A stretch of DNA of 64,000 nt from Verrucomicrobiia bacterium (GCA_049692125.1 JBAVOO010000037.1:34299-98298), one strand, 5' to 3'; counted from the stretch's first letter, positions 3,325 through 31,759 are shown. Numbers and translations: made by a program. Notes: generated by a model not told the origin, from the sequence alone.

Positions 3325-4911
3325 TCAAGGCACTTCCACCACCCTGACGGGCGCGTGCTTGATTCGTTTGAACAGGAAAATCAGCGGCACGCAGCCGAGC
3401 GCGAGCAGGCCGAACAGCCGGAAATTGTCCACGAACGCCCACAGGTGCGCCTGATGGTCGAGCGTGTTGTAAACCAGGCTGTAGGCCCGGCTCGTGGCGC
3501 GCACGGGATCGCCGTGCCGCACGAGCAGGGCATGCGCGGCGGCGAGCCGTTGCCTGAACACCGGGTCGGTCGGCGTCAGATGCCCGACCATCAGCGCCTG
3601 ATGCGCCTGTGCGCCGCGCGCCAGCATGGTGGTGACAAACGCGATGCCGATGCTGCCGCCGAGGTTGCGCATGAGATTGTAAAGGCCGGTCGCGTTGCCC
3701 ATTTGCGACTGGCGCAATTGACCCATCGTCGTCGTCGTCAACGGCACAAAAATAAAACTGATGGCCACGCCGTTGAGGATGCTTGGCAGGATGACGCGCG
3801 CCTGGCTCACCTGCAAAGTGATGTCGCTCAACACATAGGACGACACGGCCAGCATCGTGAATCCAAAACACAACAGCCAGCGGCTCCGGATGCGCCCCAC
3901 CAGCCGCCCGACGATGAACGTGGTGACGAACGCGCCGATGCCGCGCGGACTCATCGCGTAACCGCTTTGCAACGCCGGATAACCCATCAGCGTTTGCAAA
4001 AACAACGGCAATTCCGCCGTCGTGCCGTAAAGAATCACGCCGACGACCGTCATCAACATCACGCCGACAGCGAAATTGCGGTTGCGAAAAACCCGCAAAT
4101 CCACCAGCGGATGGTCGGCCGTGAATTCCCTCACCACGAACCCGGCCAGGGAGACGGCCGAAATTGCCACCAGCCACCGGATCCAGTTTGACCCGAACCA
4201 GTCCTCTTCCTGTCCCTTGTCGAGCGAGATTTGCAGTGTCGCCAGCCAGACGGCCAGCAGCGCGAACCCGATGAAATCAATCGTCGCCGCCTTGTTTCGT
4301 TTGATGTAGGGCGGATCTTCAACGAGCCATTCCTGCATCAACACGGCCATGATGCCGACCGGCAGGTTGATGTAAAAAATCCAGCGCCACGAGTAATTGT
4401 CCGTGATCCAGCCGCCGAGCGTCGGCCCCAGAATCGGTGCCACGATCACGCCCATGCCAAACATTGCCATGGCCGCGCCGCGTTTGGCCGGCGGGAAACT
4501 TTCCAGCAGAATCGCCTGGGCAATCGGCACCATCGCGCCGCCGCCCGCGCCCTGCAAAATGCGCGCCAGAATCAGCGTCTGCAAATTCCACGCCAGCCCG
4601 CACAACGCCGAGGCGAACGTGAACATCATCACGCACGAGAGCAGCACGCGCTTCCGGCCAAAATAATTTCCCAGCCAGCCGGTCATCGGCAAAATGATCG
4701 CGTTGGAAACGAGATAGCTCGTCAGCACCCAGGTCGCCTCGTCGGTGGTCGCCGAAAGGCTGCCGGCGATGTGCGGCAGCGCGATGTTGGCGATGGACGT
4801 GTCGAGCACCTCCATGAATACCGCCATCATCACGGCGAACGCGATGAGCCAGGGATTATGGCGCGGATGCCAGTCCTCGTGATGTGCGCCGTCGGGCATG
4901 GGAAAAATCAA
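3325..4911 (-). CDS. DHA2-family (EmrB/QacA-type, 14-TMS) MFS multidrug efflux permease
   Basis: 528 aa and very hydrophobic. N-terminal LDTSIANIALPHIAGSLSAT..EATWVLTSYLVSNAIILPMTGWLGNYFGRKR is the DHA2 signature region. It is paired with an upstream HlyD/EmrA-type adaptor. Confidence 0.9.
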   Translation of the reverse strand: MIFPMPDGAHHEDWHPRHNPWLIAFAVMMAVFMEVLDTSIANIALPHIAGSLSATTDEATWVLTSYLVSNAIILPMTGWLGNYFGRKRVLLSCVMMFTFASALCGLAWNLQTLILARILQGAGGGAMVPIAQAILLESFPPAKRGAAMAMFGMGVIVAPILGPTLGGWITDNYSWRWIFYINLPVGIMAVLMQEWLVEDPPYIKRNKAATIDFIGFALLAVWLATLQISLDKGQEEDWFGSNWIRWLVAISAVSLAGFVVREFTADHPLVDLRVFRNRNFAVGVMLMTVVGVILYGTTAELPLFLQTLMGYPALQSGYAMSPRGIGAFVTTFIVGRLVGRIRSRWLLCFGFTMLAVSSYVLSDITLQVSQARVILPSILNGVAISFIFVPLTTTTMGQLRQSQMGNATGLYNLMRNLGGSIGIAFVTTMLARGAQAHQALMVGHLTPTDPVFRQRLAAAHALLVRHGDPVRATSRAYSLVYNTLDHQAHLWAFVDNFRLFGLLALGCVPLIFLFKRIKHAPVRVVEVP

Positions 4912-6315: not shown

Positions 6316-6441
6316 AAATGACTAATTCCTAAATCCTAATGACGAAAGAATGACGAAGCTCGAATGACAAATTACCAAAGCCGTTCGTCATTTGGAAATT
6401 TTGGAATTCTTTAGTCATTCGTCATTATGGTTTAGTCATTC
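6316..6441. repeat. AATGAC-word palindromic element, copy 2
   Basis: aaatgactaattcctaaatcctaatgacgaaagaatgacgaagc...gttcgtcatttgg...attctttagtcattcgtcattatggtttagtcatt. The 3' 35 nt are identical to copy 3. The element contains the stop codon of the RND gene (..N D stop = aatgactaa). Confidence 0.85.
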
Positions 6442-9539: not shown

Positions 9540-9640
9540 AGGGGAAACATCGAACACCCAACATTGAACGTCCAACATCCAATGAGTTTCAAATGCCGAA
9601 ACATTGGATGTTCGATGTTGGTTGTTGGATGTTGATTGTT
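9540..9640. repeat. GGATGTT-word hairpin element between the adaptor stop and the RND start
   Basis: The left arm aacatcgaacacccaacattgaacgtccaacatccaatg faces the right arm cattggatgttcgatgttggttgttggatgttgattg across a 17-nt loop. The 10 loop-proximal bp are perfect. Confidence 0.8.
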
Positions 9641-9647
9641 CACAAAA

Positions 9648-10778
9648 TTAACTGTTGGGCGGGTTGGGCGACATCGAAGGCTTGGGCGTGTCGGTGTTGT
9701 TTTCCTGGACGCTGGTGCCGTTGTGCAGCTTGAAGAGGCCCGCGCTCACCACGCGTTCGCCGGCCTTGAGGCCGGAGGTGACGCTGACGAAATCCCCGCG
9801 CGACCGGCCGGTGCGGACGAATTGCTGGCGGACGACCTGCCGCAGTTTTCCCCCGCCCTTCGCCGGCTGCGTCTCAATCACATAAACCGAATCGCCATAC
9901 GGCGCGCTCAAAATGGCCGTTGCCGGAACCGCCAGCACGGTTTGCTCTTCCGGGAAAATCACCTCAACGCGCACGAACATCCCTGGATGCAACTGTTTTT
10001 CGGCGTTTTCAAACGTAGCCTGCAACCGCACGCTGCGCGTCGTCGAGTCCAGGTCAGGATTGATCGCCGTCAGCGTGCCGTCGAAATGTTGGTCGGGATA
10101 AGTGTCGCTGGAAACCCGCACCGCCAGCCCGGTCTTGAGCCGGGCCAGATCCTGCTGGGGCAGGGAAAAATCGGCAAAAACCGGCGACAACGCCTGCAAT
10201 GAAACGATCGGTTTGCCCACATCCAGCAACTCGCCGAGATTGACCAGCCGGATGCCCAATTGCCCGGCGAACGGCGCACGGATGGTTTTCTTTTCAATCG
10301 TCGCCCGGATCACGTCGGCATCGCCTTGTTCCTGTTTCAAGGTCGCTTCCACGGCGTCCAGCTCGGATTGGGAGACGGTGTTGTTCGCGCGCAACTGGCG
10401 CGTGCGCTCGGCATTGAGCCGCGCCAGTTCCACCTGCGCTTCGACGGCGCGCAACTGTGCTTCCTCCGATGACGTGTCCAGCCGCACCAGCAGGTCGCCC
10501 CTGGCCGCGACTGCGCCGGATTCGAACGCGATTTCGCTCACCGTCCCCGCGATTTCGGGCGAGACGGTCACGCCCTGTGCCGCATTGATCGAGCCGACCG
10601 CCGTCAGCGTGTCCTGCCATTTTTCCTCGTGCGCCACGGCGGCGGAAATCGTTTCCGGCGGCGGAGCGAACGCCTGGCCGGCGGCGATGAGGGTGTGAAT
10701 TTGCCATGCCTTGACGCCAGCCAGCCCCAGAACGACTGCCAGCACGACGATGACCGCGGTTAAGATTTTTCGTTTCAT
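9648..10778 (-). CDS. RND efflux periplasmic adaptor (membrane-fusion protein)
   Basis: 376 aa with a signal/anchor MKRKILTAVIVVLAVVLGLAG. Also present are a lipoyl hairpin (VSPEIAGTVSEIAFESGAVAARGDLLVRLD), a coiled coil, and IRAPFAGQLGIRLVNLGE. It lies immediately upstream of the RND gene. Confidence 0.9.
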   Translation of the reverse strand: MKRKILTAVIVVLAVVLGLAGVKAWQIHTLIAAGQAFAPPPETISAAVAHEEKWQDTLTAVGSINAAQGVTVSPEIAGTVSEIAFESGAVAARGDLLVRLDTSSEEAQLRAVEAQVELARLNAERTRQLRANNTVSQSELDAVEATLKQEQGDADVIRATIEKKTIRAPFAGQLGIRLVNLGELLDVGKPIVSLQALSPVFADFSLPQQDLARLKTGLAVRVSSDTYPDQHFDGTLTAINPDLDSTTRSVRLQATFENAEKQLHPGMFVRVEVIFPEEQTVLAVPATAILSAPYGDSVYVIETQPAKGGGKLRQVVRQQFVRTGRSRGDFVSVTSGLKAGERVVSAGLFKLHNGTSVQENNTDTPKPSMSPNPPNS

Positions 10779-13518: not shown

Positions 13519-13660
13519 AAAGCCCGAAGCTCGAAGGCCGAAACCCGGAAGAAATCCTAAAACCGAAGCCCGAAACGCGACAGCCGCTTGTGCGACAGTC
13601 TGGCCTTCGGGTTTCGGTCTTCGGGCTTCTTTCGGACCTCGGATTTCGGCCTTCGGATTT
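13519..13660. repeat. CCGAA-word long palindrome
   Basis: A perfect 12-bp outer inverted repeat cgaaggccgaaa (13532-13543) / tttcggccttcg (13644-13655). The inner arms are made of ccgaa words on the left and ttcgg words on the right. Confidence 0.8.
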
Positions 13661-16020: not shown

Positions 16021-16081
16021 GTAGGAGACGACGTAAGGAGTCTCTGACCGGACAATTGAGACTCGTGACCTCGTCTCCTAC
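16021..16081. repeat. GTAGGAGAC-type palindromic element (intergenic copy)
   Basis: Arms gtaggagacgacgtaaggagtctc (16021-16044) and gagactcgtgacctcgtctcctac (16058-16081), complementary at 21 of 24 positions, with a 13-nt loop. It belongs to the same family as the copy inside argJ (17977-18043). Confidence 0.85.
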
Positions 16082-17000
16082 AAGGAAAATAAAGTGGAAC
16101 GCGGCCGATTACGCCGCGAATTCCGGCGTGCAACAAACCTGGGCGCGCGAACTCATCGTGCAACTCCAGTTGCGCGGGGACGAGCGCATTCTCGATGTCG
16201 GCTGCGGCGACGGCAAGGTGACGGCGGAAATCGCGCGCGCCGTGCCGCGCGGTTCGGTCACCGGCGCCGATGCATCGCCGCAAATGATTGAGTTCGCGCA
16301 GAAAACCTTTTCGCCATGTGAAATTTCAAATCTGAAATTTCAAATCTGCGACGCACGAAAAATCAGTCTTGCCGCCTTGTCTTCTCCCTCTCCTCCCCAA
16401 AAGGAGGAGAGGGCCGGGGTGAGGAGGCGTTTAATTTCAAATTCAAAACCCCTCGCCCCAACCCTCTCCCCGCTTGGGCGGGGCGAGGGAGTCAAAAGCT
16501 TGCCATTCGACATTGTTTTTTCCAACGCGGCGTTGCATTGGGTGGACGATCATCGGGCATTTCTGCGGAGTGCAGCCTCGGTTTTGCGTCCCGGTGGGCG
16601 TCTCATCATTTCCTGCGGCGGCAAAGGCAACGCGCAGGATGTTTTCGTTGCGTTGCGCTCCGAGATGCGGCTCAAACGCTGGCGTGGATTTTTTCGCAAG
16701 CTGGGAAAACCATATTTTTTTTACAACCCGGCGGATTATGAAAAGTGGCTGCCACGGTTCGGCTTCAAATCGCGCGGGGTCAAACTATCGCCCAAGGGCG
16801 CGGTTTATCACGGGCGCGCCGGTTTTGCCGCGTGGCTGCGCACGACCTGGCTGCCCTACATGCAGCGCGTGCCGGAAAATTTGCGCGAGGAATTCATCGC
16901 CGCCGTCACGGATCGTTATGTGGCCAAACATCCGTTGGATGACGCCGGACAGGTTCACGTCCGGATGGTGCGGCTGGAAATTGATGCGGTGAAAAAGTAG
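16056..17000 (+). CDS. class I SAM-dependent methyltransferase (trans-aconitate methyltransferase-like) carrying an in-frame repeat insertion
   Basis: KWNAADYAANSGVQQTWARELI..RILDVGCGDGKVT (motif I) ...FDIVFSNAALHWVDDH. The start is uncertain. The only in-frame candidates (TTG 16056, GTG 16065) lie inside the upstream hairpin arm, and the family-typical MKW position reads ATA-AAG-TGG. Confidence 0.8.
   Translation: MRLVTSSPTRKIKWNAADYAANSGVQQTWARELIVQLQLRGDERILDVGCGDGKVTAEIARAVPRGSVTGADASPQMIEFAQKTFSPCEISNLKFQICDARKISLAALSSPSPPQKEERAGVRRRLISNSKPLAPTLSPLGRGEGVKSLPFDIVFSNAALHWVDDHRAFLRSAASVLRPGGRLIISCGGKGNAQDVFVALRSEMRLKRWRGFFRKLGKPYFFYNPADYEKWLPRFGFKSRGVKLSPKGAVYHGRAGFAAWLRTTWLPYMQRVPENLREEFIAAVTDRYVAKHPLDDAGQVHVRMVRLEIDAVKK
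16366..16497. repeat. double-hairpin low-complexity insertion inside the methyltransferase gene
   Basis: Hairpin A is ccctctcctcc-ccaaaa-ggaggagaggg (16386-16413). Hairpin B is cccctcgcccc-N-ggggcgaggg (16449-16489). The tandem gaaatttcaaatct x2 (about 16320-16348) is echoed by ttaatttcaaattcaaaa (about 16431-16448). It is translated as SLAALSSPSPPQKEERAGVRRRLISNSKPLAPTLSPLGRGEGVK. Confidence 0.75.
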
Positions 17001-17101
17001 CGCAGGCGTCTCGCCTGCACAGCGAGTACGTCAGCAAAAGTAATTGAATCAATACTTTCGCGCACCTGCTTCGGCGCGGTGCAGGCGGGACGCCTGCGCT
17101 A
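16998..17101. repeat. GCAGGCG double-palindrome element between the methyltransferase and argJ
   Basis: tagcgcaggcgtctcgcctgcac (16998-17020) and gtgcaggcgggacgcctgcgcta (17079-17101) are inverted copies with one mismatch. Each arm is itself a small palindrome (gcaggcg-NNN-cgcctgc). Confidence 0.85.
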
Positions 17102-17160
17102 CCATTGTCGGCTTTCGAGTTGAAAATTATTTGCGCCGCCCGCAAATTCTCCGCCGAACA

Positions 17161-18543
17161 ATGAGCAAAAATCCGTTCAAAATAATTTCAGGTTCCATCA
17201 TCGCGCCGCGGGGCTTCCTCGCCAGTGGCGTATTTTGCGACATCAAACGCCTCGGCACCGGCAAAGGTTCGCAGAAGGGCGAGAAGCGCGACCTTGCGCT
17301 CATCGTTTCCGAGGCGCCGGCGACCGTGGCGGGCATGTTCACCACCAACCAGGTTTGCGCCGCGCCGGTGAAGGTTTGTGTCGGGCGCGTGAAAAAGGGA
17401 ACCGCACAGGCCATCGTGGTCAATTCCGGCAATGCCAATGCCTGCACCGGCAAACAGGGTTTGCAGGACGCCCAGGAGATGGTTCGCTATACCGAACGCG
17501 CGTTGAACTTTCCTAAAGGCTCGGTTCTGGTCGGCTCGACCGGGCGCATCGGCGTCACACTGCCGATGGACAACGTCCGCGCGGGAATCATTGAGGCGTG
17601 CGTTGAATTGGGTTCAACGCGTGCACACGCAGCCCACGCCGTAGAAGCCATCATGACCAGCGACACGCGGCCCAAACAAATCGCGGTCGAATTCAAACTC
17701 GGCGGCAAAACCGTCCGCATCGGCGGCATGTGCAAAGGCGCGGGCATGATTCAGCCCGGCATGAGCACCACCGGTACGCGGCCTGCCGCGATGCCGCTGC
17801 ATGCGACCATGCTTTGTTTCATCACCACGGACGCAGCCATCGGGGCCAAGGTTTTACAGGCTGCATTGCAGGAAGCCGTGGCCCAGAGCTTCAATCGCAT
17901 CACCGTGGACGGCGACATGAGCACGAACGACACCGTGCTGGTGCTGGCAAATGGGCTGGCGGGAAATCCTTTAATTGTAGGAGACGAGGTAACGAGTCTC
18001 ACTTCTTCAGGAAAAATTAGAGCCTCCTCACGTCGGCTCCCACAAGATTTGGAAATTTTTCAAGCCGCTCTCAATCACGTCTGCCTCGAATTGGCCAGGA
18101 TGATTGTTCGAGATGGCGAGGGCGTGCATCGCGTCGTAACGGTGCGCGTGAACGGGGCGAAGACGGTGGCGGATGCCGATGCCGCGGCGCGCGCGGTCGC
18201 CAACAGTCCACTGGTAAAGACAAGCTGGCACGGCGGCGACCCGAATTGGGGCCGCATCATTGATGCCGTTGGTTATAGCCCGGCGACCGTGGTGGAAGAG
18301 AGAGTTGACATCGGCTACAGTGCCCCCGGCAGCAAAAAGATTTTGTGGAGCTTAAAACACGGTCAGCCGACGAAGGCAACGTTCAAACAACTTTGTGCTG
18401 CCGTCGTGCCCAAGGAATTTGATTTGCACATCAACATGAACCTCGGCAAAGCTTCCGCCGTGATTTATGCCGCCGATTTGACCGAGGAATACGTGGATTT
18501 CAACAAGGGCGATGTGGGTGATCCGGGTTCGCTAGGCGGGTAA
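17161..18543 (+). CDS. argJ: bifunctional glutamate N-acetyltransferase / amino-acid acetyltransferase
   Basis: From ATG 17161: MSKNPFKIISGSIIAPRGFLASGVFCDIKR..DLALIVSE.PATVAGMFTTNQVCAAPV...ATMLCFITTDA (autoproteolytic T site) ...DGDMSTNDTVLVLANG...DGEG..R. It contains an in-frame palindromic insert at 17977-18043. Confidence 0.93.
   Translation: MSKNPFKIISGSIIAPRGFLASGVFCDIKRLGTGKGSQKGEKRDLALIVSEAPATVAGMFTTNQVCAAPVKVCVGRVKKGTAQAIVVNSGNANACTGKQGLQDAQEMVRYTERALNFPKGSVLVGSTGRIGVTLPMDNVRAGIIEACVELGSTRAHAAHAVEAIMTSDTRPKQIAVEFKLGGKTVRIGGMCKGAGMIQPGMSTTGTRPAAMPLHATMLCFITTDAAIGAKVLQAALQEAVAQSFNRITVDGDMSTNDTVLVLANGLAGNPLIVGDEVTSLTSSGKIRASSRRLPQDLEIFQAALNHVCLELARMIVRDGEGVHRVVTVRVNGAKTVADADAAARAVANSPLVKTSWHGGDPNWGRIIDAVGYSPATVVEERVDIGYSAPGSKKILWSLKHGQPTKATFKQLCAAVVPKEFDLHINMNLGKASAVIYAADLTEEYVDFNKGDVGDPGSLGG
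17977..18043. repeat. GTAGGAGAC-type palindromic element inserted in frame in argJ
   Basis: gtaggagacgaggtaacgagtctc (17977-18000), 19 nt, then gagcctcctcacgtcggctcccac (18020-18043). The first arm differs from the 16021 copy at 2 of 24 positions and the second arm is more decayed. Confidence 0.8.
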
Positions 18544-18564: not shown

Positions 18565-19662
18565 ATGCCCGCAAATCCCAAAGTCTTTATCAGCTATAGC
18601 CACGACTCGATTGAACATGGCGACAAGGTTTGGAATTTTTCAGAAAAACTACGCAACGAAGGAATAGATTGCATACTTGACCAATATGAAACTTCGCCGC
18701 CCGAAGGCTGGCCGAGATGGATGGATAAACAGATTCGTGACGCTGATTTTGTTTTGATGGTCTGCACTCAAGCTTATTACAAGCGTGTAATGGGTGAGGA
18801 GAAACCGGGGAAAGGTTTAGGAATTCGTTGGGAAGGCAATCTGATTTACCAACACATTTACAATGCTGGAAGTATAAACAATAAATTCATTCCAGTGCTC
18901 TTCAAAGACGGTAAATTTCAGCATATCCCCACGCCACTTCAAGGAGCGACTCATTACTGTGTTGATGAAGATGGAGAGCATGACCGTTTATATTGGTTTT
19001 TGCGCGGAATTGTTCCACAAAAACCAGCGTTAGGGAAATTGCGTCCGCTGCCAGCAAAAGAACGTAAAACAAATCCCGGAATGTTTCTTACAGGTTGTAT
19101 TGATGTCAGTTTGTGGGGCAAGGCAGGCTGGAGTGGAACTTTTTTCATCACGGGCGGTAATCAGCCACCGGTCTTCGGTTTTTTATTTCAGGATGCTGCC
19201 TCTGCGCTCGGGATATTTGAAGGTTGGGTTAAGCGTTTTGGAATAAAAGATGAATATAATGAAATGCGTATCACTGTAGTTGAAGGTGATATAAAGGGAG
19301 AACCTCCAGGTTATTCTGTTCTCGTCAGCGTAAATCCGCTGAATATCTACGAGCGAGCGGATGCTCAAGGCATAAACATACCAAAAGATCATGTCATGAT
19401 TATCAGCAGAGTTCATCGCATGAATCCCGCTCCCGGTTCTCGCAACCTAGAAAAATTTAAGGAAGAATATCGAAAGTTTGGCTGTTGCCGACTTGTTGCT
19501 GTAGTTATTGAAGGTGAGGCCGTCCGTGTTTTTCAAGAGCCTTCCATCATGAAACAAGAAATTGTATTTCGCCAAGCTGATGAAATTACGTCGAATGACC
19601 CGGACGCTATAGCCAAAAAGGAGTTTTATAAAGAGCCAGAAACTCCAAAACGAAAACGCTGA
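18565..19662 (+). CDS. SEFIR/TIR-like domain protein with an unassigned C-terminal domain (candidate anti-phage effector)
   Basis: 365 aa. The N-terminus is KVFISYSHDSIEHGDKVWNFSEKLRNEGIDCILDQYETSPPEGWPRWMDKQIRDADFVLMVCTQAYYKRV..GIRWEGNLIY..FIPVLF, the SEFIR/TIR fold pattern as I remember it. The C-terminal 200 aa are unrecognised. Sampled 60-nt lines are 40-48 % G+C versus 68 % in argJ. Confidence 0.8.
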   Translation: MPANPKVFISYSHDSIEHGDKVWNFSEKLRNEGIDCILDQYETSPPEGWPRWMDKQIRDADFVLMVCTQAYYKRVMGEEKPGKGLGIRWEGNLIYQHIYNAGSINNKFIPVLFKDGKFQHIPTPLQGATHYCVDEDGEHDRLYWFLRGIVPQKPALGKLRPLPAKERKTNPGMFLTGCIDVSLWGKAGWSGTFFITGGNQPPVFGFLFQDAASALGIFEGWVKRFGIKDEYNEMRITVVEGDIKGEPPGYSVLVSVNPLNIYERADAQGINIPKDHVMIISRVHRMNPAPGSRNLEKFKEEYRKFGCCRLVAVVIEGEAVRVFQEPSIMKQEIVFRQADEITSNDPDAIAKKEFYKEPETPKRKR

Positions 19663-30782: not shown

Positions 30783-31628
30783 TTAACCGCCAATCAACTC
30801 GCGAACTTTGGATTGAATATCGCCGCCCCGCATCAACGATTCGCCCACCAGAATGGCATTGGCGCCGCACTTCTTCAATCGTTCCACATCCCCGCGTGCA
30901 TGAATGCCGCTTTCGGCGACGAGCAAAGTAGGACAGGCATCTTGCCGGTCTCCATTTTTTAATTTAGAGACAGGCTGGAAACCTGTCCTACAGTTTAACT
31001 TCGCCGCCAGCCGTTCCGTTGTCGCCAGGTCCACCTTGAAATTTTTCAAATTGCGATTGTTCACGCCGATGAGGCTGGCGCCAATTTTCATCGCCCGGGC
31101 CAATTCCGTCTCATCATGCACTTCAACCAGCGCGGCCAGACCCGCTTCCATCGCGAGGGAATGGAATTTTTTCAATTGTTCGTCGCTCAAGATGGCCACG
31201 ACGAGCAAAATCGCGTCCGCGCCCCACTCGATGGCTTCGAGGATTTGCCGCTCATCAATCATGAAGTCCTTGCGCAGCAGCGGCAGCTTCACGGCGGCGC
31301 GGATTTGACGGAGATGATCGAGCGCCCCTTGGAAAAACCTCTCGTCGGTCAGGACCGACAAACAACTTGCGCCCGCCGCTTCGTATTCCTTCGCGATGCG
31401 AACCGGATCGAAGTCCTGGCAGATCACCCCTGCCGACGGCGACGCTTTTTTGACCTCGGCAATCAGCGCGATGTCACCGTGTCGCGGGGGCTGCAACGCC
31501 GCGACAAAGTCACGCTGTTCGTCGCGTTCGAGCAACGCGTCGCGCAAATCGCCGGCGGCCAGTGCGCGCTCCGAAAGGCGGGCGACCTCCAGCTTCTTTT
31601 GTTCAACAATGGTGTCGAGAATGGACAT
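30783..31628 (-). CDS. trpC: indole-3-glycerol-phosphate synthase
   Basis: 281 aa: MSILDTIVEQKKLEV...ALIAEVKKASPSAGVI...YE.AGASCLSVLTDE.FFQG....L.......LPLLRKDFMIDE.QI.EA...GADAILL..A.L...IGVNNRNL..F.VDL.TT..L......VAESGI. It carries an in-frame palindromic insert (30928-30991). Confidence 0.93.
   Translation of the reverse strand: MSILDTIVEQKKLEVARLSERALAAGDLRDALLERDEQRDFVAALQPPRHGDIALIAEVKKASPSAGVICQDFDPVRIAKEYEAAGASCLSVLTDERFFQGALDHLRQIRAAVKLPLLRKDFMIDERQILEAIEWGADAILLVVAILSDEQLKKFHSLAMEAGLAALVEVHDETELARAMKIGASLIGVNNRNLKNFKVDLATTERLAAKLNCRTGFQPVSKLKNGDRQDACPTLLVAESGIHARGDVERLKKCGANAILVGESLMRGGDIQSKVRELIGG
30928..30991. repeat. GTAGGACAGG-type palindromic element inserted in frame in trpC
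   Basis: gtaggacaggcatcttgccggtctc (30928-30952), a 14-nt AT-rich loop, then gagacaggctggaaacctgtcctac (30967-30991). The termini gtaggacagg / cctgtcctac are perfectly complementary. The architecture (GTAGGA...GTCTC) matches the argJ element. Confidence 0.8.
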
Positions 31629-31631
31629 GGG

Positions 31632-31759
31632 AAAATGACGAATGACTAAATCCTAATGTCTAAAGAATGACGAAGCCCTAATTCCCCCAAAGCGTGCCTG
31701 TTCGTCATTTGAGCATTTGAACATTCTTTAGTCATTCGTCATTATGGTTTAGTCATTTA
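31632..31759. repeat. AATGAC-word palindromic element, copy 3
   Basis: aaaatgacgaatgactaaatcctaatgtctaaagaatgacgaagc...gttcgtcatttgagc...attctttagtcattcgtcattatggtttagtcattta. It lies between the prfB stop and the trpC start. Confidence 0.85.

Follow-up and report, generated by a model that had tools for sequence, protein, structure and literature searches.

The argJ gene (bifunctional glutamate N-acetyltransferase; 17161..18543, plus strand) lies in a 64,000-nt stretch of DNA from a Verrucomicrobiia bacterium (GCA_049692125.1 JBAVOO010000037.1:34299-98298), which we call the window and from whose first letter all window coordinates are counted. Within its open reading frame (ORF) of 460 codons we found a 67-base in-frame insert (17977-18043) that is a repetitive extragenic palindromic (REP) dimer of the GTAG type, in which two inverted 24-nt units flank a 19-nt spacer, much as in the paired elements known as REPINs (REP doublets forming hairpins). 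Taking the evidence as a whole, we put a probability of roughly 80% on the explanation that a REPIN-like GTAG-REP dimer of a RayT-type family (RayT, or RAYT, being a REP-associated tyrosine transposase) entered the DNA for an ArgJ linker in an ancestor, was kept open and translated, and has been conserved as nucleic acid.

The product of the host gene matches Pfam PF01960 and the PDB entries 1vz6, 1vra and 3it4, a database search gave a 100% match to a protein of a Limisphaerales metagenome-assembled genome (MAG) named ArgJ by NCBI (P0001), and the autoproteolytic site ..LHATML.. is unbroken. The region of the insert is translated within the argJ ORF as ..PLIVGDEVTSLTSSGKIRASSRRLPQDLE.., its left unit (GTAGGAGACGAGGTAACGAGTCTC; 17977..18000, plus strand; translated VGDEVTSL) being composed of the tag GTAG, the stem strand GAGACGAG, the loop GTAA and the stem strand CGAGTCTC. 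The spacer (ACTTCTTCAGGAAAAATTA; 18001..18019, plus strand) is translated as TSSGKI and part of an R, and the inverted right unit (GAGCCTCCTCACGTCGGCTCCCAC, or GTGGGAGCCGACGTGAGGAGGCTC on the minus strand; 18020..18043) as (R)ASSRRLP(Q). The arms are complementary at 18 of 24 positions, which bears out the imperfect inverted repeat with a 19-nt spacer, in frame in argJ, that a first-pass annotation of the window had described. The GTAG tag of the right unit is mutated to GTGG in the source genome only; the orthologues L002, L003 and L201-L204 retain ..CTCCTAC. Peptides predicted from the ORF to derive from the insert are ..NPLIVGDEVTSLTSSGK (spanned by a tryptic peptide), ..GNPLIVGDEVTSLTSSGK and LPQDLEIFQAALNHVCLELAR. 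The identical 460-residue ArgJ was called on 16 contigs of independent assemblies (including MAGs GCA_052143795.1 and GCA_052146955.1), and thus the insert is not an assembly artefact but real and stably kept in nature.

The insert, ~22 residues long, follows the strand ..VLVLANGLAGN and precedes the helix FQAALNHV.., and it is exactly at this point that HMMER alignments to solved ArgJ/OAT chains are interrupted, those chains having a link of only 4-6 residues (1vz6 234->239, 1vra_B 58->65). This strand-loop-helix context, taken with the alignment gaps, suggests that the insert sits in a surface loop, which would be how ArgJ tolerates it. We compared 80 genome loci with ArgJ orthologues at 46-85% identity: distant orthologues (46-75% identity) have a linker of ancestral length, ~54 nt from LAGN to FQ (e.g., GNGKLSAADLKTFQ, GNEALRVGTPEFEIFQ), against 108 nt in the window argJ, a net gain of 18 codons. 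The short linker that the first-pass annotation expected of ArgJ at this site is therefore what both the structures and the distant orthologues have.

Several loci share the insert, either as type A, in which the arms are the same and the spacer is recognisably homologous (L002, L003, L201-L204), or as type B, with pair-flipped arms and a spacer homologous to that of type A (L017, L205, L206), and the insert was found in 46 of 120 close database homologues of ArgJ. Seven type-A argJ DNAs that share it differ pairwise at 33-48% of third codon positions; since it is common to lineages this diverged, the insert is not recent, and we conclude that it is old, having entered the ancestor of many lineages, and does not mark a recent landing in the source genome. 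The earlier picture of a repeat landed inside an essential enzyme thus holds as an insertion made without a frame break and fails as a recent event. A reading of the loop variants GAGGTAACGA and GACGTRAGGA as orientation markers, by which types A and B would be independent insertions in opposite orientation, was rejected, as pair 12:17 of the unit covaries and the homology between the A and B spacers holds in one and the same orientation; types A and B accordingly represent one event. A second REP insertion is present in argJ at about residue 140 in L002, L003 and L008.

Other parts of ArgJ also vary in length. Orthologues carry sporadic in-frame repeat-like inserts at two further sites (L002, L003 and L008 at ~10337-10411; P0004, P0014, P0045, P0098 and P0115), with inserts such as AIAANVSSRPSSSRKDRPRSDERSY and SVYDRRKLNTKDSPAVTDRRY after residue ~112-115 and AAPASAKSASARQ and AFASDASARRASR after residue ~387-392. 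Residues ~200-215 (window ~17760-17805), directly before the autoproteolytic Thr of ..ATML, hold an extra 13-20 residues (GMSTTGTRPAAMPLH) compared with solved ArgJ/OAT, and the length of this segment differs among close orthologues (..ALSKGGLH, ..LPGGRAQALH).

The repeat is shared with non-coding DNA of the window. The 24-mer with up to three mismatches occurs there three times versus 0.00 expected (100 shuffles), so the repeat is not a product of chance, and its family is represented by two dimers in 64 kb. The second of these (16021..16081) lies between argC and a methyltransferase gene ~2 kb upstream of the argJ copy; its arms (16021-16044, plus strand; 16058-16081, minus strand) are separated by a 13-nt spacer and are complementary at 21 of 24 positions, confirming the better-preserved intergenic sibling of the earlier description, and as single-stranded DNA (ssDNA) it folds into a strong hairpin (-16.5 kcal/mol, z=-4.6). 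This sibling occupies the orthologous position in L075 (87 nt, one difference from that of the window), L002, L003 and L005, persists as a remnant in L001, and is missing at the orthologous argC-methyltransferase position in L007, L033 and L044. The possibility raised in the annotation, that orthologues might share the segment in genomes devoid of the repeat family, did not materialize in the sense intended: the segment is shared, and non-coding copies accompany it wherever it was found (L002, L003).

A scan of a metagenome collection with the pattern GTAGSAGMCGASGTNASGAGKCTC returned at least 120 stretches, and the family statistics given here rest on the matches listed. These comprise 240 arms, which form 97 inverted dimers (spacers of 10-52 nt) and 46 singles (46/143 units), a count, taken at the level of the lineage, before which the objection that the argJ copy might be the only one falls away; none of the 120 stretches listed contains argJ. 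A unit opens with GTAG, and the 8-bp stem that comes next is capped by a GTRA tetraloop. Over the 240 arms the tag is well conserved (G1 in 235, T2 in 230, A3 in 227, G4 in 238), pairs 12:17 (C:G 161, G:C 73, non-Watson-Crick 6) and 8:21 (C:G 159, A:T 47, T:A 9) covary, and positions 10:19 and 11:18 are nearly always tandem G.A/A.G mismatches in the stem. The units are thus stem-loops with GTAG at the 5' foot and within the 20-40 nt of the GTAG-tagged REP superfamily, and the dimers show the two inverted REPs, short spacer and single long hairpin of a REPIN; the element is a GTAG-type REP dimer, REPIN-like, of a family abundant in Limisphaerales-like Verrucomicrobiota. A conserved W-R-A-Y-T motif lies downstream of each unit and pyrimidines lie upstream of GTAG; a search for a target motif found nothing clear beyond this pyrimidine bias. 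The motif and the preceding pyrimidines would fit the CT cleavage sites described for the E. coli enzyme TnpArep (PMC8266576).

Among the seven type-A argJ DNAs, 3 of 16 third codon positions vary in the arms versus 341 of 426 in the rest of the gene (Fisher p=5e-7), i.e., synonymous sites in the REP arms are ~4-fold less variable than elsewhere in argJ, and the spacer is free to drift, with 13 of 18 positions variable. Near-invariance of the arms at third positions while the spacer drifts argues for a constraint on nucleic acid, not on peptide. What separates type A from type B is mainly double changes preserving pairs 8:21 and 12:17, plus a G/C change at position 5 that is matched between the two arms; at the orthologous intergenic argC-methyltransferase copy the same matched changes occur in different lineages. 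The constraint may come from recognition by RayT, from conversion by other copies of the family, or from another function or host use of the hairpin. Spacer lengths (19, 22 and 25 nt) differ always by multiples of 3, from which it appears that the frame is under coding constraint, indirect evidence for translation.

These data bear on the possibility that the insert is a functional ArgJ loop selected by the host, with VGDEVTSL..ASSRRLL kept because ArgJ needs it and the likeness to a repeat secondary. The near-invariance of the arm peptides in 46 orthologues (column diversity 0.03 and 0.12, against 0.15 for the remaining protein) is as such a loop would have it; however, peptide selection does not predict the conservation of synonymous third positions, the same nucleotide sequence recurs in non-coding DNA and, in another frame, in unrelated proteins, and at this site close relatives carry unrelated peptides or heptamer repeats and distant ones a short linker only. 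We consider a loop of this kind very unlikely.

In-frame residence of the family extends to other genes. We classed dimers as genic where the ORF spanned at least 80 residues on both sides, a tally by ORF span that was checked by Pfam for five hosts only. Of the 97 dimers, 22 lie in ORFs, 48 are intergenic or terminal, 11 are ambiguous and 16 are too near a contig end to judge, so that about a quarter (22/81) of those evaluable among the matches listed are genic. On the tag strand two of the three frames through a GTAG unit are open, on the opposite strand all three are, and genic dimers use just the two frames that avoid the TAG of GTAG. In the five Pfam-backed hosts domains flank the insert on either side: it splits the anticodon-binding domain of a valyl-tRNA synthetase (ValRS), occurs twice, at domain linkers, in a xanthine-dehydrogenase-like protein, has Pfam domains on both sides in RecN, falls between domains of HypF, and occurs twice in the helicase Lhr. 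At locus L023 a 1286-aa ORF contains two dimers in tandem.

A candidate mobilizer was found on related contigs. A tblastn search with an approximate E. coli RAYT query gave hits to two of the metagenome loci, L113 and L198, which were then checked by NCBIfam and PDB searches. In L198 a 201-aa gene has its start and stop bracketed by units of the family, with GTAG facing outward, and the same outward-facing bracket surrounds two of its homologues, taken with their flanks (L215, L216, L219, L220), where it is made of GTAGGAGACGACGTGAGGAGTCTC units, in a conserved neighbourhood of oxidoreductase, RayT, lpxB and HIT genes. The profile NCBIfam NF047646 ('REP-associated tyrosine transposase') matched the L198 protein over its full length with E=4.9e-10. 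In the PDB the protein matched E. coli TnpArep (4ER8) only, and weakly, in an alignment that pairs both the HUH motif (DHLHLV) and the Tyr motif (FYIAANP); many of its 1549 homologues are named 'REP element-mobilizing transposase RayT' by JGI. On these five contigs, therefore, we see the arrangement that characterizes a REPtron, an HUH Y1 transposase gene flanked by its cognate REPs. According to PMC8266576, TnpArep recognises single-stranded REP, needs GTAG, cuts at CT beside the REP and requires a stem bulge in E. coli; adjacency in relatives together with this literature suggests that a RayT mobilized the element. A separate observation concerns L113, where a second RAYT (3550-4233) scores above the NCBIfam cut-off (NF047646, 93.7 bits; Pfam Y1_Tnp E=1e-9) and is flanked by an unrelated repeat (..GGAGCGCGGACGCCCACGTCCGC..), so that these organisms have several REP/RAYT pairs.

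We can therefore sketch how the insert may have arisen, in steps that remain conditional. The presumed mobilizer would be the single-copy RayT-like HUH tyrosine transposase whose gene is REP-bracketed in related genomes; an ancestral copy of the REP dimer would have entered the DNA for a short, variable linker of ArgJ, where, with units mostly open in frame and a net gain of 18 codons, the argJ reading frame would have been kept and the element translated as a loop extension that ArgJ tolerates. Afterwards the arms would have stayed near-constant, changing mainly by compensatory pair flips, and the spacer would have drifted, the conserving force acting on DNA or RNA hairpins and not on the ArgJ peptide. 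Single-stranded hairpins are the substrate of RayT-type enzymes, whose action produces no target duplication. The flanks of both window copies (16021-16081, 17977-18043) have no target-site duplication.

Absence of the insert from the mature product, whether through removal from mRNA or protein in the manner of an intron or intein or because argJ is a decaying pseudogene, is in our view highly improbable: an Rfam search of the insert region found no family, introns included; 22 residues is far below intein size; the spacer variants of 19, 22 and 25 nt are what translation would impose; and the ORF is intact, with ..HATML.. and more than 200 invariant columns kept over 62 orthologues and the same protein on all 16 independent contigs. 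Least credible of all is a conventional miniature inverted-repeat transposable element (MITE), derived by deletion from an insertion sequence (IS) that encodes a DDE transposase and has terminal inverted repeats, which the inverted arms, the short variable spacer and a DDE_3 transposase near argJ in one relative (L204) bring to mind, but against which stand the lack, at either window copy, of the target-site duplication of an IS-derived MITE, the conserved hairpin that each arm forms by itself, with covarying pairs and GTAG as its 5' tag, the abundance of single arms, and the bracketing by these units of a RayT-like gene and not a DDE gene.

Some of our results weigh against the explanation by an ancient, translated and RayT-mobilized REP dimer. 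The same tblastn query found no Y1 transposase in the 64 kb of the window or in any of the 80 genome loci, so that the REP-RayT pairing was seen on related contigs and would apply to the source genome by extension; the L198 protein scores 39.5 bits against a curated NF047646 cut-off of 80, and a Pfam search of it missed Y1_Tnp at E<=0.01. The argJ copy as a whole makes a poor long hairpin as ssDNA (-7.4 kcal/mol, z=-0.4), each arm keeping its own stem, and with this weak hairpin and the GTGG right tag it may no longer be mobile. Translation of the insert is suggested by conservation of the frame, and an AlphaFold model of ArgJ (62 close homologues, all >=79% identical) had a mean pLDDT (predicted local distance difference test) of 41 and was unusable for placing the insert.

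The linker of ArgJ holds more than this one family. At least five sequence-distinct GTAG/GTGG dimers occur at the same ArgJ position, 3-4 residues past GN (~nine in L055) and in two reading phases: besides that of the window these include family C (GTAGCCGCGAACGTGAGTTCGCGG..CCGCGCTTTCACAAGCGCGGCTAC; L006, L008, L075), family D (GTGGGGCGAGCGTCCCCGCGAGCC/GGCTCGTCAGGAGCCTCGCCCCAC; L010, L033, L208), GTRGGGCGAGACTCCGTCGAGCC-type dimers in the other reading phase (L052, L078, L221, with a solo arm in L058) and a GTAGCCGTCGCC-type dimer (L055). All follow one plan of GTAG, an 8-bp stem and a 4-nt loop. Other close relatives have tandem heptamer repeats in the linker, often of ancestral length, e.g., (GTTCGGA)x4 in L001 and L009, and AACATCG/AACATTC units that yield the peptides NIEHRTSNAELR and NIQHSTFNIQH; FGVRSSEFGV is another heptamer-type linker peptide. 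In L024 a left REP arm is joined to a heptamer-like array, and in L001 a heptamer array has taken the place of half of the argC-methyltransferase REPIN. REP-bearing alleles of the close clade, whichever family they carry, have the flanks GNPx[LI] and [QR]DFExFQ largely in common, and L075 has its family-A intergenic copy alongside a family-C dimer in argJ.

A single-gene neighbour-joining (NJ) tree built from 198 ArgJ proteins could not be read, being too star-like, and was dropped in favour of a bootstrapped argC+argJ NJ tree (763 columns, linker masked), in which three well-supported clades mix linker states: (L001 heptamer, (L002 A, window A) 93) 95; (L208 D, (L075 C, (L207 heptamer, L205 B))) 92; and ((L203 A, L201 A) 100, (L008 C, L003 A) 76) 92. 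We tentatively propose, as a possibility that we ourselves hold to be somewhat doubtful, that this linker codon is a landing pad at which unrelated REP families and heptamer arrays serially take over, in frame, from the REP dimers in residence, the in-ORF hairpins being under purifying selection at the nucleotide level. Repeated independent insertions filtered through one permissive loop, or recombination shuttling linker alleles among lineages, could equally underlie the pattern, and part of the apparent mixing may stem from errors in the two-gene tree.

The phenomenon itself has been documented in this phylum. Di Nocera, De Gregorio & Rocco (2013, BMC Genomics 14:522; PMC3733652) defined the GTAG and CGTC REP superfamilies and found intragenic GTAG repeats to be most numerous in the verrucomicrobium Opitutus terrae, where single and dimeric REPs lie in frame in known proteins, the dimers encoding 20-30 residues. 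Hosts there include many nucleic-acid enzymes and tRNA synthetases, some genes being hit twice, and those authors argued that the inserts are probably in flexible linkers. The present element resembles the O. terrae repeats in phylum, superfamily (5' GTAG, sometimes GTGG, which also occurs as a variant of O. terrae GTAG-20, and a short stem-loop) and in-frame residence; it differs in order (Limisphaerales-like), REP sequence and host gene, argJ being absent from the list of PMC3733652. Different REPs at about the same site are reported in that paper only for recB of two Xanthomonas species, and it contains no analysis of synonymous-site conservation or of turnover at a single codon, both of which we analysed here. 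Our literature search found nothing on in-frame REPs for Limisphaerales or argJ specifically; what is new is the REP sequence family, the order and the host gene, and the novelty for the lineage claimed in the first-pass annotation survives in that narrower form.

The gammaproteobacterial REPIN-RAYT or REPtron systems (E. coli TnpArep 4ER8, Pseudomonas REPINs; PMC3116915, PMC8266576) share with ours the inverted REP pair forming a larger hairpin, the GTAG tag, a single-copy HUH Y1 transposase gene bracketed by cognate REPs, conserved stem irregularities, compensatory stem variants and persistence at orthologous loci. Those REPINs are described as essentially extragenic, whereas here about a quarter of the evaluable dimers listed are inside ORFs, and the RayT-like protein, a candidate transposase, is divergent, scoring under the NCBIfam cut-off and matching 4ER8 weakly. 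The annotation had instead compared the insert with Rickettsia palindromic elements (RPEs). The likeness is one of behaviour, palindromic repeats in frame in genes that probably still encode functional proteins, and probably not of family: according to PMC3733652, RPE-4 and RPE-6 are CGTC-tagged repeats and RPE-1 is a longer palindromic insertion, and these descriptions speak against counting among the RPEs a GTAG-tagged dimer of 61-67 nt in Verrucomicrobiota that is tied to a RayT-like transposase.

The window contains other repeats. The methyltransferase ORF (~16092-17000) has a 14-nt tandem (GAAATTTCAAATCT x2) at 16316-16345 and a 108-nt imperfect palindrome at 16384-16491 (CTCCCTCTCCTCCCC..GGGGCGAGGGAG), which are unlike the argJ element and together encode ~42 residues in frame (..LSSPSPPQKEERAGVRRRLISNSKPLAPTLSPLGRGEGV..); six of seven orthologues are without this segment and L201 has it. 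A GTAG dimer of a different family (16997-17102; arms GTAGCGCAGGCGTCTCGCCTGCACAGCG / CGCGGTGCAGGCGGGACGCCTGCGCTAC, 93% complementary) lies between the methyltransferase gene and argJ, and the TAG within its tag is the methyltransferase stop codon. A third GTAG dimer family is found at 30928-30991 (GTAGGACAGGCATCTTGCCGGTCTC / GAGACAGGCTGGAAACCTGTCCTAC). Inverted arrays of 7-nt tandem repeats occur at 9546-9640, 6324-6440, 683-765, 13520-13629 and 31634-31743, with units such as AACATCG/AACATTG, AATGACG, GTGTTGC and GAAGCCC.., and heptamer arrays are present in other loci (L001 8801-8945, L024 10841-10890, L179) and inside the Lhr helicase (NIEHPTSNAEHRT). Between argJ and ilvC (18565-19662) the source genome encodes a 365-aa SEFIR/TIR-domain protein (Pfam), where relatives have a MazE/PemK pair (L208), a helix-turn-helix protein and a DDE_3 transposase (L204) or nothing (L201, L203), so that this spot looks like a small variable islet beside argJ.

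Two features are of chief interest: the arms are conserved at the level of nucleotides, and one argJ codon shows turnover among several families. In-frame decoration of proteins with REPs, described before in one cultured verrucomicrobium, now also covers a large clade of uncultured soil and freshwater organisms and an enzyme of core biosynthesis. The data carry a warning for those who annotate genes or predict structures, in that low-complexity loops of 15-30 residues in these genomes (VGDEVTSL.., VAADVRRL.., VGRASSRAG.., NIQHSTFNIQH..) are repeat-derived and lineage-variable. ArgJ offers a natural experiment within one ORF, in which REP hairpins are conserved for nucleic-acid reasons though probably translated. 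If serial replacement at the linker is true, an essential gene would host long-lived yet turning-over hairpins, selfish or domesticated, that are policed by RayT recognition or conversion and not by the protein, and argJ would be a tractable locus for the target choice of RayT-type enzymes.

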